DNA of 23,679 nt from Bacteriovoracia bacterium. Lineage in GTDB: Bacteria; Bdellovibrionota; Bacteriovoracia; Bacteriovoracales; Bacteriovoracaceae. Under the pieces are notes generated by a model that did not search any database, was not told where the DNA came from, and was given only the letters and a program-made list of their open reading frames with translations. Position numbers and translations under genes: made by a program. This document shows, piece by piece, positions 3,349-22,011 of the stretch (position 1 is its first letter; every line of letters begins with the position of its first letter). The DNA lies in NCBI GenBank assembly GCA_046570105.1, contig JBKHVI010000014.1, positions 1 to 23,679 on the forward strand, in the 5' to 3' direction.

Positions 3349-4253
3349 TATTTCTTCCTGACCGCTTTGGCACCATCAAGCAGATGGGTATAAACACCTT
3401 TGATCTTCAAGCTGTCGGCTTCTTCCACGCGACAAGCAAAGCAGATGGTGTTGTTAAAGACTTCCGAGTCTTTGAGTGTTTTGACTTTGTCTTTATAGAA
3501 CGAGCGATTCAATACGTGAGTCGGCACCACCGCCATGCCTAGTCCTTCAGCAACGCCTGTTAAGAGCTGGCCGAAAGAGTTGACCACCAGGCGTGTTTTC
3601 ACCTGGCGAGGAAGAGCGCCGAAGTGCTCACGACACCAACGGAAAAAGAGCGGATCGTTTTCTTCGAACATCAATACGGGATACTCTAAAAGAGCTTTTA
3701 GATCCGTTTTATCAGTGATTTTAAAATTCTTATCATCTGGGAAAACCAGCACAGAGTGCTCTTCATTCAAGACCCACTTCTCTGCCCACGCTGGCACTTG
3801 ATAATCAGGTAGAATCAAACAGTCCACATCCCCGCGTTCAAAGCGACGAATGAGATTTTCAGGAAAATCCATACTGATTTTCACTTCGAGTTCTGGATGC
3901 TCGCCGAGATAATCAATAATTCGAGAACTAATCCAACTTTTCCCCAGGCCCGCAAGAGTGCCGACGTGCAAAGTCCCACGCACTTCCTTCGCCTCTTGGT
4001 GGATATGGTCAATGGTGTCTTCCACACGCTTGAGATACTGCTTAGCGACCTTAGCGAGCTTGCGCCCGGGTTCAGTCAATGTGACGTTTTTCCCGTGACG
4101 GGCCAAGAGCGAAAAACCTACGCGGCCTTCGAGGGTTTTAAGTGTCTGGGATACAGCGGATTGAGTCACCCCGAGGGTCTCAGCGGCCTTAGAAATACTG
4201 TCACTCTGTGAGAGCGCAATCAAAACTTGTAGATGGCTTGATTCGTATTTCAT
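3348..4253 (-). CDS. LysR family transcriptional regulator
   Basis: HTH SISKAAETLGVTQSAVSQTLKTLE, LTEPG, GTLHVG, substrate-binding domain with GLGMAVVP; 301 aa. Confidence 0.93.
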   Translation of the reverse strand: MKYESSHLQVLIALSQSDSISKAAETLGVTQSAVSQTLKTLEGRVGFSLLARHGKNVTLTEPGRKLAKVAKQYLKRVEDTIDHIHQEAKEVRGTLHVGTLAGLGKSWISSRIIDYLGEHPELEVKISMDFPENLIRRFERGDVDCLILPDYQVPAWAEKWVLNEEHSVLVFPDDKNFKITDKTDLKALLEYPVLMFEENDPLFFRWCREHFGALPRQVKTRLVVNSFGQLLTGVAEGLGMAVVPTHVLNRSFYKDKVKTLKDSEVFNNTICFACRVEEADSLKIKGVYTHLLDGAKAVRKK

Positions 4254-4266
4254 AAGTTTTTAATTC

Positions 4267-4424
4267 TTTTCAAGTAGACCATCTCATCCTGGCGCACAGA
4301 CTCGTAGAAAATTCAAAGTTTGTGCCAGGATGAATTAGTTAGAACACTAGAAATCTCAGGCGTCCTCTAATTCTGTCTTTTCAGAAACTGAATCCCCTTT
4401 CGGACTTTATGGTCTACTTGAAAA
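4267..4424. repeat. Structured intergenic element, copy 1 (16-bp perfect terminal inverted repeat, internal hairpin, conserved blocks A-D)
   Basis: TTTTCAAGTAGACCAT (4267-4282) / ATGGTCTACTTGAAAA (4409-4424); internal stem TCATCCTGGC (4284-4293) / GCCAGGATGA (4324-4333); blocks shared with 11226-11384. Confidence 0.9.
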
Positions 4425-4434
4425 TCAATTTAAT

Positions 4435-4470
4435 AAAAAAAAAGGGATCAGTTTTGCTGATCCCTTTTTT
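4435..4470 (-). terminator. Intrinsic (possibly bidirectional) terminator downstream of fusA
   Basis: AAAAAAAAAGGGATCAG-TTTTG-CTGATCCCTTTTTT: 8-bp stem flanked by A and T tracts, ~20 nt after the fusA stop. Confidence 0.9.
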
Positions 4471-4489
4471 CTTTAATTAGTTAACAAAT

Positions 4490-6670
4490 CTAGTCAGCAC
4501 GCTCGTTAAGCTTCTCTTTACGATCGTTCATGACTTTCTCTTGAACGTGGCTTGGGCATGGCTCGTACTTAGCGAATTCCATCGAGTAACCCGCTTTACC
4601 AGCTGTACCTGAACGCAACGTTGTTGAGTAACCGAACATTTCTGACAAAGGAACGTGAGCGTTAATAACAGCGTCACCACCTTCAGAAGTTTCTGAGCCC
4701 AAGATCACACCGCGACGTGAAGACAAGTCACCGATGACGAAACCTTGGTATTCTTGTGGAGTTTCAACTTCCACTTTCATGATCGGCTCAAGAAGAACTG
4801 GGTTAGCGCGCTTGATAGCATCTCTCATCGCCATACGAGCAGCGATACGGAACGCCATATCAGACGAGTCAACGTCGTGGTATTGGCCGTCTTGCAAGAA
4901 CGCTTCAACGCCGATCACTGGGAACGCCGCCAAAGGACCTTTGTTCATAACGTCGTTAAAGCCTTTGTCACACGAAGGAATAAATTCGTTCGGAATAACA
5001 CCACCCTTAATCTCGTTGGTGAACTTGTAAACTTGGTCTTCGCGCTCTTTGCGATCTTCTGCCAATGGCTTGATCTTACCGGCCACTTTAGCGAACTGAC
5101 CTGAACCACCGGTTTGCTTCTTGTGTGTGTATTCCAAAGTTGCTTCGCCACGAATAGTTTCGCGGTAGTTAACTTGAGGAGCACCGACTTCAACTTCAGC
5201 TTTGTACTCACGCTTTAGGCGCTCAGTATAAATCTCAAGGTGAAGCTCACCCATACCAGCGATACGTGTCTCACCTGATTCTTCATCAGTGAAAACGTGG
5301 AAAGTTGGGTCTTCTTTAAGGAAGCGCTGAAGGCCTTTGCCCATCTTCGCTTGCTGCTCTTTATCTTTCGCTTTAATTGAAAGCTCGATAACTGGTATTG
5401 GAATATGCATCCCTTCGCACGACAAGTGCTCAAGGTTCGAATCCTCACCGACGAAAGTATCACCCGAAGCACAGTCAACACCGATCATCGCGATGATGTC
5501 ACCAGCGATGGCGTAATCGATATTGTCACGGTCGTTTGAGTTCATACGAACGATTCGTCCTACACGAACGCGCTTCTTAGTACGAGTATTGATAAGAGTA
5601 TCACCCTTATTCAAAGTACCTTGATAAATACGAGTGTAAGTCAACTGACCGAATTGTTCGTCAGTGATCTTAAACGCCATACAAACAAGGCCCTTCTCAA
5701 AGTTTGGCTCAAGATCGATCTTTTGGTTGATCTTAGAGTCAATCGCTTTTGGCTTCTCACAAGTCACTGGACTTGGGAGGTAGCGAGCAACGGCGTTCAA
5801 AAGAAGTTGAACACCTTTGTTTTTGAAAGCTGAGCCCATGAATACTGGAGTCAATTTCAAAGACTGAGTCGCCTGGCGAATCACACGGTGAATAGTTTCA
5901 TCACTTACATCGCGGCCTTCAAGGATATCTTCCATCATGGCATCATCGAATGCAGAGATAGAATCGAGAAGAGCTTCGCGGTAGCTGCGAGCTTGCTCAA
6001 CGTAATCAGCAGGAATAGCTTCTTCGCGCACTTTCTCGCCGTTATCGCCGTCGAAGTAATAAGCTTTTTGAACGATCAAATCGATTACGCCAATGAAGTT
6101 TTCTTCAGCGCCGATAGGAATCTGCATAAGAACGGCGTTGTGGCCAAGTTTCTCACGAAGAGCTTTTGTTCCGTTGAAAGCGTTTGCTCCCATACGGTCC
6201 ATCTTATTCAAAAACGCCAAACGTGGAACACGGTAGCGCTTCATCTGACGGTCAACTGTGATTGATTGTGATTGAACACCAGCAACCGAACAAAGAACCA
6301 AGATCGCACCGTCAAGAACGCGCAATGAACGCTCAACTTCAACTGTGAAATCCACGTGTCCCGGAGTATCGATCAAGTTAACCTTGATGCTTTTGCCATC
6401 ACCTTCAGCGAAAGTTACACCAGTGTTATCCAAACCGCGCCACTCAACAGTGGTTGCAGCTGAAGTAATAGTGATACCCTTTTCACGCTCGAGTTCCATG
6501 TGATCCATGGTGGCACCAGCGCCGCCGCCTTTTACGTCTTCAATTTTATGAATTTTATCGCAGTAAAAAAGAATACGTTCAGACAAGGTCGTCTTACCTG
6601 AGTCAATGTGGGCCGAAATACCGATGTTACGGGTTTTAGGCAAATTCTTTTGGTCTAAACTAGCGCTCAT
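4490..6670 (-). CDS. fusA: Elongation factor G (EF-G1/spd-type paralogue, outside the str operon)
   Basis: [68 protein letters not shown]. Start set at ATG 6670 (GGGAG 5 nt upstream). Confidence 0.97.
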
Positions 6671-11073: not shown

Positions 11074-11225
11074 ATATAATTTCTGCCCCGACCATTAAAT
11101 ATTCTTGCAAGAAAAGTTATTGGAAAAACGTGAAGGATATCAATATATTTGCGCTGAATCGGCCTTGTGCGGTGTCAGTTTGCCCCTACGGCAATTTATT
11201 CCGACTAAGTCGGTTTTTTGAAAAT

Positions 11226-11384
11226 TCTCTAACTTTCAGGTCTCATCCTGGCGCATAGATCAGTTAAAAGAACAAAACTCATGCCAGGATGAACTGCAAT
11301 TTCTAGTAGAAATTTTAGGCGTCCTCTAAATGTTATCAGGAATTAAGGTGAGTTCTGCTTCGGACTTTACCTGAAAGTTTGAGA
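11226..11384. repeat. Structured intergenic element, copy 2
   Basis: TCTCTAACTTTCAGGT (11226-11241) / ACCTGAAAGTTTGAGA (11369-11384), 15 of 16 positions paired; same blocks A-D and spacer lengths as 4267-4424. Confidence 0.9.
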
Positions 11385-20314: not shown

Positions 20315-21271
20315 ATGATGAAATACTTACTTCTTCTCTTTTTATTCTCCTGCGCTGCGCAGATTAGGCCTGAAACAGGGTCAGAAGCTCCTGTCGCGAT
20401 AGTAGAAGTTGCGACTGAAGCTCCGCCCACGCCTCAACCCAAACCGACTCTCACTCCGGCACTCACCTCGTGGTGCGAGCGCACTGACAAAGAATTTACC
20501 CGCTATAACTGGGGCAAGAGTCGCTGCGATGAATTTAATTGGTCTCATGTGCGCAACTCTGTTGATGGCCATCCCATCGCTTGGATGGTGTTTGGCGATG
20601 AGACCACATTAGAAAATAAAAATGTCACTTTGATTATGTGTGGCGTTCACGGCGATGAAATTACACCGATAAAATTTTGCTACGACATACTTTATGATCT
20701 CAAAGACTTCCATTGGGATTTCTCTGAGCGAGTTGTGGTCGTCGCTCCCATCGTTAGCCCCGATTCATTTTTTAAGGCGCGCCCCACTCGCACCAATTCC
20801 CGCGGAGTGGACGTCAACCGTAACTTCCCAACTAAAGACTGGAGTGCGGATGCCATTCGTTTGTGGACGCAGCGACATGGTAAAGACAAGCGCCGCTTTC
20901 CAGGAAAAAGAGCATTGAGTGAACCGGAAGTCGTTTTTCAGGTGAATCTCATCAAGCGCTATAACCCCGCCAAGATTATCTCGGTGCACTCACCGCTTAT
21001 GATGTTGGATTATGATGGACCGGATTTAACCCATAAAGAGACAGGGCCTGCTAAGGATCTTTTACTTTCCATGTCGGAGAAGGCGAGCGGCTACAAAGTC
21101 TCAAACTACCCTCACTTCCCAGGTAGCTTGGGCAATTGGGCCGGACAAGAATTAGGTATTCCCACCTATACTTTAGAACTTCCCAACTCTGACCCCCATC
21201 AGAGCACCAAATACTGGCGCCAATTTCGCGAGGCAATTCATCACGCGATCGAACAGAAAGTTGGACCTTAA
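20315..21271 (+). CDS. M14 zinc carboxypeptidase lipoprotein, murein peptide amidase MpaA-like
   Basis: Lipobox LFSC, Pro-rich linker, GVHGDE, RTNSRGVDVNRNFP, SEPE, ISVHSP, PGSLGNW, TLELP. Confidence 0.88.
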   Translation: MMKYLLLLFLFSCAAQIRPETGSEAPVAIVEVATEAPPTPQPKPTLTPALTSWCERTDKEFTRYNWGKSRCDEFNWSHVRNSVDGHPIAWMVFGDETTLENKNVTLIMCGVHGDEITPIKFCYDILYDLKDFHWDFSERVVVVAPIVSPDSFFKARPTRTNSRGVDVNRNFPTKDWSADAIRLWTQRHGKDKRRFPGKRALSEPEVVFQVNLIKRYNPAKIISVHSPLMMLDYDGPDLTHKETGPAKDLLLSMSEKASGYKVSNYPHFPGSLGNWAGQELGIPTYTLELPNSDPHQSTKYWRQFREAIHHAIEQKVGP

Positions 21272-21885
21272 GTCAGAACCTTGTTTATCATCCATCCCTT
21301 CGGCCGATCTAGATAGATCAATTCATTCATTCGTCTAAATATCACTGTCATTTTCTTCTCCTTTGCCAACTTCTTTAAATCCCGCACGACTCCTAATGAT
21401 GAGTACCCGTCGACATATGCCCATTTCATTCCAGAGTGCTTTTGCTCGTTGAATAAGACGTAATGAACGGCATTTCGTGTTTCTCTTATGGAACGCAAAA
21501 CATGCAAATGATAGCGCCCCAGTTGCACCCGTCCTTTTCTCAAACCTTTAGCGATCGTCACCGTGAGGGAGCGCATGCCGCGAGTTAGGGTGGCATTGTC
21601 CTGCGCTTCAAGAATCAAATGAATGTGATTTGACTGTAACGAATAATGAATCACTCTGAGTCCCATCTTACGGGCATTGAGAATCGCCCTTTTCAAAAGA
21701 CTGAGTCCCTTTTTGTGGCGAATCATTGTGCGGTATTTGAAATTCACATGCATCGCATGTTTCATTACAACCTTCTCACGCTTGCGATGGGCGACGCCTT
21801 TGGAATGAATACGCTTTCTACCGGCCCCAGGTCTTCTGCCACCGCGTGATCCTTTGTAGAGATTGAGTTTCATTTGTTTTGCCAT
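21268..21885 (-). mobile_element. HUH (Y1) tyrosine transposase, RAYT/IS200-like
   Basis: HUH motif SNHIHLILEA, candidate catalytic Tyr in AVHYVLFN, RYH upstream, basic N-terminal RGGRRPGAGRK arm; GGAGG RBS favours the ATG at 21885. Confidence 0.85.
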
Positions 21886-21903
21886 CATGCCTCCGATTGA
21901 AAA

Positions 21904-22011
21904 AGGCATATGTCGCTCATCCTACAGATGATTGAAGAGGAGTATGTGCGAGGAAATGAGCTTTGTTTCTGATATGGAGCGAGAATGCCTAAATTTTAGA
22001 CACCATACTAA
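21904..22011. repeat. Hairpin-rich region upstream of the HUH transposase with degenerate similarity to the intergenic element
   Basis: CTCATCCT (21916-21923), TGTGCGAGGA (21945-21954), AAATTTTAGACACC..CTAA (21991-22011) in the same order as blocks A, B, C; imperfect inverted repeat AGGCAT..TCGCTC / GAGCGA..ATGCCT. Confidence 0.5.

Follow-up and report, generated by a model that had tools for sequence, protein, structure and literature searches.

The locus analysed here raises the question of how copies of one short repeat can carry terminal arms that differ in sequence between copies and yet pair within each copy. Two such copies lie in a stretch of 23,679 nt (the window), which is part of contig C14 of the genome of a Bacteriovoracia bacterium (G000; a 3.0-Mb assembly in 131 contigs, 88% complete). 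A preliminary description of the sequence had offered three explanations: (i) that insertion copies part of the target in inverted orientation, (ii) that the element carries a sequence complementary to its target and is guided there by base pairing, and (iii) that the arms are the covarying closing stem of a structured RNA, reminiscent of the a1/a2 arms of retrons. We therefore analysed both copies, their relatives in the genome and the corresponding sites in related genomes.

Both window copies are of a short form and read on the + strand, copy 1 at 4267..4424 (134.6 bits with covariance model R1) and copy 2 at 11226..11384 (138.7 bits with the same model). As had been described, copy 1 is closed by a perfect 16-bp inverted repeat, its 5′ arm TTTTCAAGTAGACCAT (4267-4282) pairing at 16/16 positions with the exact reverse complement ATGGTCTACTTGAAAA (4409-4424), and copy 2 by a different one, TCTCTAACTTTCAGGT (11226-11241) and ACCTGAAAGTTTGAGA (11369-11384), with 15/16 positions complementary. 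The boundary assigned to the arms, at the T of block A and the A of block D, is also seen in both copies: the innermost arm pair consists of the T preceding CTCATCC and the A following GGACTTT, and the arms abut these conserved blocks. A search for the copy 1 arm gave two matches against none expected in 100 shuffles, and the arm complementarity of both copies is not a chance effect. Inside the arms lies a hairpin, P2, at 4284..4333 in copy 1 (stem 4284-4294 with 4323-4333, the apical part being variable) and at 11243..11292 in copy 2 (stem 11243-11253 with 11282-11292). Further 3′ are the two halves of a helix recognised by covariation, P3, with GTCC at 4362..4365 and its partner GGAC at 4402..4405 in copy 1, and at 11321..11324 and 11362..11365, respectively, in copy 2. 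Overall the two copies share 79% column identity; the conserved blocks are common to both and the arm sequence is not. The + strand folds far better than shuffled sequence (z of -6.8 for copy 1 and -4.8 for copy 2), and the reverse strands fold about equally well.

Copy 1 is flanked by the genes for a LysR-family regulator (start at 4253, - strand) and EF-G, the latter with its terminator, and copy 2 by those for an Rrf2-family regulator and TsaE, the stop codon of TsaE (11403, - strand) being 18 nt away. The folded strand of both copies is antisense to the neighbouring genes. In relatives the LysR-family gene starts merely 8-30 nt past the EF-G terminator (window 4253-4490), so that the LysR promoter must overlap the 3′ end of the EF-G gene; in G000 copy 1 is wedged 13 nt upstream of the LysR-family start codon.

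A profile search of G000 found 32 full and four partial copies of this repeat, and covariance model R1 returned the identical list. The full copies measure 152-177 nt (a non-coding, multi-copy element of ~160 nt), 30/32 lie outside any ORF of at least 120 aa by crude ORF calling, and they are dispersed singly across 27 contigs between housekeeping genes. Far from being missing in most copies, the closing stem, P1, is present in 32/32 with 11-23 pairs; its inner 14 pairs are exact Watson-Crick pairs in 19 copies, with 13/14 in 11, 12/14 in one and 11/14 in one. The arm sequence itself is not conserved, unlike that of classic MITEs (mean pairwise arm distance 0.40). Many copies agree with a loose consensus, TCAAATTCRCCCGT/ACGGGYGAATTTGA, from which other copies, the two in the window among them, depart widely; the arm sequences grade into one another and do not fall into a few conserved types.

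The taxonomic range of the element is narrow. Model searches found it in four of the 11 genomes of the genus (35 matches including partials in G000, 19 in G007, 11 in G006 and five in G003) and returned nothing from 30 additional genomes of its family and phylum. In wider sampling runs, which scored the best 19 or 70 candidates per genome and so give lower bounds, it was present in at least four of 151 family genomes, the additions being two genomes of a second genus (g51), and no copy was among the candidates scored in 150 phylum genomes other than G000. Scanning one genome per species with a 23-base pattern yielded 14 true loci in Bacteriovoracaceae/Bacteriovoracia MAG records. Five alphaproteobacterial loci from the same scan were set aside as unrelated, being P2-only matches that are mutually heterogeneous and belong to no Rfam family. 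These are TCATCCTGGCGCA...GCCAGGATGA hairpins with a 44-nt loop in Sphingomonas, Rhizobium, Dongia and a Rhodospirillaceae MAG (L132, L136, L143, L146 and L148); their contexts are unrelated and only the P2 part of the model was matched. There were no matches to the element in viral contigs, none to Rfam over the window at gathering score and nothing consistent on either copy at E values up to 10, and narrow word searches of the literature found no such element for Bacteriovoracaceae.

To relate the arms to the insertion target, we compared filled sites with empty ones, as the preliminary description had proposed. All eight congeners that have the LysR/EF-G locus lack the element there, and lack both arms as well. 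At the TsaE site G007 carries an orthologous copy, and seven other congeners have an empty site from which the arms are absent. The outcome at both window loci is therefore that neither arm is present without the element. Across copies, arm distance increases with core distance (r = 0.49; 0/2000 permutations as high), and the distances of 5′ and 3′ arms track each other (r = 0.91). Since the empty sites have neither arm and arm divergence tracks core divergence, the arms were not copied from the target; they belong to the element and are inherited with the core. This contradicts both inverted copying of the target (option i) and guide pairing with it (option ii), as do the insertion duplications, which are direct repeats (10-13 bp) located beyond the arms. 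The idea that arm hairpins already present in the genome serve as targets was also rejected, since only two solo arm hairpins occur genome-wide against 32 full copies. Further arm-like sequences were found in the flanks of only 3/32 copies.

A few observations could nonetheless be read in favour of arms made from, or complementary to, the target. In two of the six copies with duplications the bases adjacent to the element complement part of the duplication (TTTATC and GATAAA at C103; GGGA and TCCC at C44a), and a site filled in G007 carries both arms as a short hairpin in G000. Against these stand the absence of either arm from the empty sites at both window loci and at two proven duplication sites, the correlation between arm and core distances, the loose consensus common to many copies and the ratio of two solo hairpins to 32 full copies, which fits internal deletion; we regard a target origin of the arms as extremely unlikely. 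The solo hairpin at the site filled in G007, a truncated copy on contig C9 and a mini-copy on C33 read as products of internal deletion. The deletion derivatives comprise the solo arm hairpins at C9:43435-43500 and C29:8008-8050 (with fillers of 10-20 nt), the mini-copy at C33:17850-17935, which consists of P1 and P2 only and abuts the stop codon of a Y1-like gene, and a stump of the 5′ arm and half of P2 at C9:15577-15607, a site that holds a full copy in G006.

The element is mobile DNA and inserts as DNA with direct duplications of ~10-13 bp. Insertion polymorphism was observed among congeners, sites filled in relatives being empty in G000 and vice versa. Direct repeats of 9-13 nt flank 6/32 copies, compared with 0.4% of 992 mismatched flank pairs; the remaining 26 copies have no flanking direct repeat above chance. 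Empty sites prove two target duplications, one of 13 bp and one of 10 bp: the C49 copy has two CTAGGGACGCTCT around it in G000 for a single CTAGGGACGCTCT in G007, and the C1 copy (32530-32692) has two GTCAGTGAA(G/C) in G000 for a single one in G006. No short fixed duplication was found directly at the stem, and in several cases the duplicated stretch includes the stop codon of the gene upstream.

Placement is strongly biased to gene ends. A crude ORF finder called both neighbours for 30 copies; the genes on either side are convergent in 21 of these, tandem in nine and divergent in none. The distance between P1 and the gene end is often 0-16 nt, and the element sits almost exclusively at gene 3′ ends. 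Orientation is uninformative at convergent sites. Of the nine tandem sites, six have the folded strand antisense to both genes and three have it in the sense direction, and this antisense majority, together with the antisense window copies, is a poor fit to a sense 3′-UTR role. A same-strand intrinsic terminator lies within 60 nt downstream in 8/32 copies, copy 1 included; no element-borne U-tract terminator was found after P1, and several copies adjoin ordinary terminators. At one locus in G007 (L067, contig C7, ~1684-1840) three tandem 52-nt units (CATCCTGTTATCGCCGACTCTCGCC...) directly follow the element copy, and the orthologous site in G000 is without the whole block.

Alignment of the 32 copies with MAFFT and folding with RNAalifold gave three helices: the closing stem P1 formed by the arms (15 bp), the hairpin P2 (CAUCCUGGCG/UGCCAGGAUG, 11 bp) and the long-range helix P3 (GUCC/GGAC, 4 bp). 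We then used an alignment of 67 copies from G000, three congeners, the two g51 genomes and two further MAG records; this alignment was fitted to the model and thus leans towards structure, and the unfitted 32-copy alignment gave the same helices. Of 1992 cells in the 67 copies 96.5% were paired, compared with 79.1% when partners were shuffled and 30-45% when they were slid. Changes on both sides were seen at 27/30 pairs, and 0/500 shuffles reached any of these measures. All 15 pairs of P1 have changed on both sides, which, with the compensatory changes in orthologues described below, bears out option (iii) in so far as it saw in the arms the closing stem of a structured element. In the g51 copies P1 and P2 are built from wholly different sequences and still pair, and GCGUCC and UUCGGAC are retained. 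Within P3, 49 copies have U-A and 16 have C-G at pair 109-193. The halves of P3 are ~40-80 nt apart with a hairpin between them, and the arms of P1 ~130 nt apart.

Other pairings were less consistent. A local GAGG/CCUC hairpin round GCGUCC is weak (at most 44/67 copies) and competes with P3, and a candidate AAGCU/AGCUU helix has partial support (34-55 of 58-66). G·U pairs outnumber A·C by 54 to 0 in P2, where 50/54 come from one conserved pair, and weakly, by 16 to 10, in P1; this excess mildly favours the + strand as aligned. Hammerhead-like boxes spotted by eye fall within P2, and that reading was dropped.

Comparison of resident copies suggests that the fold is under constraint after insertion. 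The closest pair of copies in G000 is still at least 21% apart in the core, so the copies are old, though their stems are intact. Four orthologous pairs between G000 and G007 differ at 14/240 paired columns (5.8%) and 64/397 unpaired columns (16%), and in the genes alongside them 26.6% of 5267 third codon positions differ. Five orthologous pairs together show eight compensatory double changes, two one-sided changes with pairing kept, four one-sided breaks and one double break. For one G000/G006 pair, in which 51/101 unpaired columns differ, orthology is uncertain. The slow change relative to third codon positions, with the compensatory changes, is the main evidence for a fold that is used in place. 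The sequence just outside the arms is unusually prone to indels, with large two-sided indels in the C14b and C19 orthologues; the C19 orthologues also show a mirrored change from A-U to U-A, and mirrored indel-like shifts were seen as well. Template switching between the arms is a possible contributor to their complementarity.

A long form of the element, in which the core lies within an outer stem of ~23 bp (AACTGNCC...TGGTGTT), was found in G003, G006, G161, one further MAG and as two copies in G007. The same 23-bp repeats (AACTG...TGGTGTT) bound a 1037-bp insertion sequence (IS) in G161, G006 (two copies) and G003, and the IS, like the long form, is flanked by duplications of ~8-11 bp. The IS encodes a protein of 298-334 aa with an N-terminal zinc finger of the IS1/IS1595 type, which matches the IS1 family weakly (E 6e-9, 36 bits, below the NCBIfam cut-off of 100). 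No trace of the folded core was found in the interior of the IS, which indicates that the core is carried as cargo and did not arise from the IS by deletion. The IS protein is encoded in 8/11 genus genomes, including two intact copies in G000, and also in genomes without the element. No long-form copy was found in G000, all 32 copies being without the IS repeats, and the P1 arms show no likeness to these repeats (mean score 4.9 versus 4.6 for shuffles). A parent IS with matching terminal repeats is thus present for the long form, and none was found for the short form. The intact 1037-bp IS1-like copies of G000, at C3:76583-77619 and C11:~56858-57937, have imperfect repeats (AACTGCC...GGTGTT) and a direct repeat of ~11 bp; the left repeat of the C11 copy is tandemly duplicated, and a third, broken copy lies at C38:27706-28635. 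At C57:2429-3280 G000 also has an 850-bp insert with two small minus-strand ORFs just past a terminator, at the exact site of a long-form copy in G007, and the position resembles an insertion hot spot.

The best explanation of these results, and one that we consider reasonably probable, is an apparently undescribed, non-coding, ~160-nt, MITE-like mobile repeat of a few Bacteriovoracaceae lineages that carries a fold maintained by selection, probably an RNA fold. The arms would differ among copies because old copies drifted while the fold was kept in place, and arm sequences that vary yet always pair are what the closing stem of a conserved, maintained fold should look like. Compensatory changes have preserved P1, P2 and P3 alike, among paralogues, between orthologues and in lineages whose helix sequences are wholly different. 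Maintenance would most probably act on the transcript, making the element a structured RNA module at gene ends, with a termination or insulation signal, a 3′-end protection signal and a processing signal as candidate roles. In other lineages the core may have been picked up between IS1-like inverted repeats and then spread as a conventional MITE. On this explanation descent with compensation accounts for arms that differ between copies and pair within them, and exotic insertion chemistry is unnecessary. A stronger version, to which we assign some, though low, probability, is that P2, the long-range GCGUCC...UUCGGAC helix and the junction blocks, which make up the conserved core, form a new functional RNA carried as cargo by two mobile shells, either its own covarying arms or the IS1-like repeats, and maintained at each site by selection. 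The host, or the element through host tolerance, would then depend on the fold, and a self-processing ribozyme or a protein-recruiting RNA marking the boundary of convergent transcripts would be candidates.

Maintenance of the fold by selection on resident copies has to be weighed against accounts in which the pairing arises otherwise. Were the element purely selfish DNA, the fold would act as single-stranded or cruciform DNA in transposition, recognised by a structure-specific enzyme, with no role for the host. The mobility of the element and the target duplications it leaves are in keeping with this, as are the absence of an orientation preference relative to genes, the folding of both strands, the narrow and patchy taxonomic range and the presence in the same genome of HUH/Y1 transposase-like genes (eight Pfam matches, a 9-locus family) and of the IS1-like IS. 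We nevertheless consider it unlikely, because selection at the stage of transposition cannot maintain the stems of resident copies, and here cores at least 21% apart have stems that are 96% paired. Moreover, paired columns of orthologues change 4-5 times more slowly than third codon positions, a covarying 4-bp long-range helix would be unusual in a DNA recognition site, HUH transposition is not known to leave a target duplication, and the Y1 genes do not track the element. Mutation alone might also keep the arms complementary, if quasi-palindrome template switching or mismatch repair of hairpins during replication copied changes between the arms. The first of these processes is well established as a source of mutation, and the mirrored double events between close orthologues (the A-U to U-A change in C19, and indel-like shifts) and the unstable sequence just outside the arms of the C14b and C19 orthologues are in keeping with it. 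Such copying is an improbable explanation of the whole pattern, however: it leaves unexplained why unpaired columns also change more slowly than third codon positions (16% versus 26.6%), why single-stranded blocks are conserved and why P3 covaries although its halves are ~40-80 nt apart around an intervening hairpin, and the ~130 nt between the P1 arms is far for the mechanism.

We consider it highly improbable that the copies are free-standing small RNA genes, or retron-like RNAs, with promoters of their own and arms of the a1/a2 kind. Strong covariation and conserved junction blocks would be expected of such genes, and the 8/32 copies with a same-strand terminator within 60 nt downstream, copy 1 among them, would suit them; but the other 24/32 have no such terminator, no conserved promoter-like block lies upstream, the flanks beyond the arms are unrelated among copies and many copies are wedged 0-16 nt from two convergent stop codons. 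Nor does the insertion with target duplications fit, or the lack of a reverse transcriptase and of an Rfam match. The retron analogy drawn in the preliminary description is not borne out, as G000 (88% complete) has no match to the reverse transcriptase profile RVT_1 and the neighbours of the window copies (LysR, EF-G, Rrf2 and TsaE) are housekeeping genes.

No cognate transposase was found for the short form. G000 has eight Pfam matches to Y1_Tnp and a family of ~210-aa Y1 proteins at about nine loci. One of these paralogous loci lies in the window, an HUH/Y1 transposase-like ORF of 213 aa at 21268-21909 (- strand; Pfam Y1_Tnp, 23.4 bits) with a weak match to REP-associated tyrosine transposases. 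The Y1-like loci carry a conserved GCGACATATGCC box before the start codon and its reverse complement ~490 nt within the gene, which in the window are at 21895-21915 and 21411-21431. A partial element, the C33 mini-copy, lies near only 1/8 Y1 loci. The Y1 family occurs without the element in 10/12 genomes holding it, and the element occurs without the Y1 family in G136 and G161. A Y1/HUH transposase as the mobiliser is thus unsupported, by the flanks or by the distribution over 151 genomes.

Among known kinds of repeat, REP, BIME and REPIN elements are likewise multi-copy and palindromic and often lie between convergent genes, and Y1/HUH genes are co-resident here. REPs are GC-rich hairpins of 20-40 nt that flank a RAYT gene and make no target duplication. 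The element differs from them in its 160 nt, multi-helix fold and duplications and in neither flanking nor co-occurring with Y1 genes; membership of the REP/REPIN-RAYT kind was rejected on the partial element at 1/8 Y1 loci, the discordant distributions and the target duplications. Palindromic elements derived from IS200/IS605 insert without duplication beside a fixed tetra- or pentanucleotide, and the 10-13-bp duplications of unrelated sequence do not fit this pattern. Nor do single copies on 27 contigs with housekeeping neighbours fit an integron attC site, which would stand in a tandem cassette array beside an integrase. The likeness to retron msr-msd is limited to two complementary arms closing a structured non-coding stretch, and the 32 dispersed copies with duplications, the lack of an Rfam match and an assembly with no reverse transcriptase set the element apart. 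With the IS1 family the long form shares the 23-bp repeats of the 1037-bp IS, with ~8-11-bp duplications at both; the differences are that the IS is without the core, that the 32 copies in G000 are without the IS repeats and that the family match is below the curated cut-off.

The element is a small, non-coding, multi-copy repeat with terminal inverted repeats, target duplication and presence/absence polymorphism, the features of a MITE. The ERIC, Correia, RUP, BOX and SPRITE families have conserved terminal repeats and short duplications (TA in the ERIC type and in Correia). The element differs from them in that its complementary arms vary freely and the conserved part is internal. In a review that treats such repeats (PMC3184786), ERIC, Correia (CREE), RUP, BOX and SPRITE resemble it in their small size, inverted terminal repeats, duplications, long stem-loops and position at gene 3′ ends. 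The same review describes MITE-like repeats as folding into long stem-loops and tending to occupy gene 3′ ends, and SPRITE as biased to convergent gene ends (PMC3184786). The closest parallel given there is bcr1 of the Bacillus cereus group, a dispersed, non-coding repeat of ~155 bp in which compensatory changes keep a long double-stranded fold; size, dispersal, flanking direct repeats, strain-variable distribution and a fold kept by compensation are common to both (PMC3184786). As bcr1 is presented in that account, its direct repeats are of 5 bp (PMC3184786) rather than the 10-13 bp found here. The hosts belong to unrelated phyla and the two repeats are not alike in sequence; the present element is further set apart by its junction of several helices, one of them long-range and covarying, and by its mainly convergent placement. 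Transcription, proposed for the present element, has been shown for bcr1 (PMC3184786). The element is thus MITE-like in kind, and four features distinguish it: arms that are complementary yet free in sequence, an interior of several helices that is conserved, long duplications (10-13 bp) and two alternative shells.

Small intergenic repeats are usually dismissed as decaying selfish DNA, and here three helices are kept even between orthologues. Occurring both naked and wrapped in IS ends, the core clearly illustrates how different vehicles spread one structured module. Should the fold act in RNA as a terminator, insulator, processing signal or ribozyme, it would reveal the way in which the compact genomes of predators punctuate convergent genes, and a proven function would add a new class to the structured RNAs of bacteria.

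A further conserved stretch adjoins copy 2. Between the start of the Rrf2 gene and the copy, window positions 11120-11222 (+ strand) are conserved across eight genomes of the genus, with no match in Rfam. Its features are a promoter-like site at 11120-11149, a pair of hairpins and, at 11201-11219, a terminator made of CCGACTAAGTCGG and a T-run, and by these sequence features it looks like a small RNA of ~65 nt, divergent from Rrf2.
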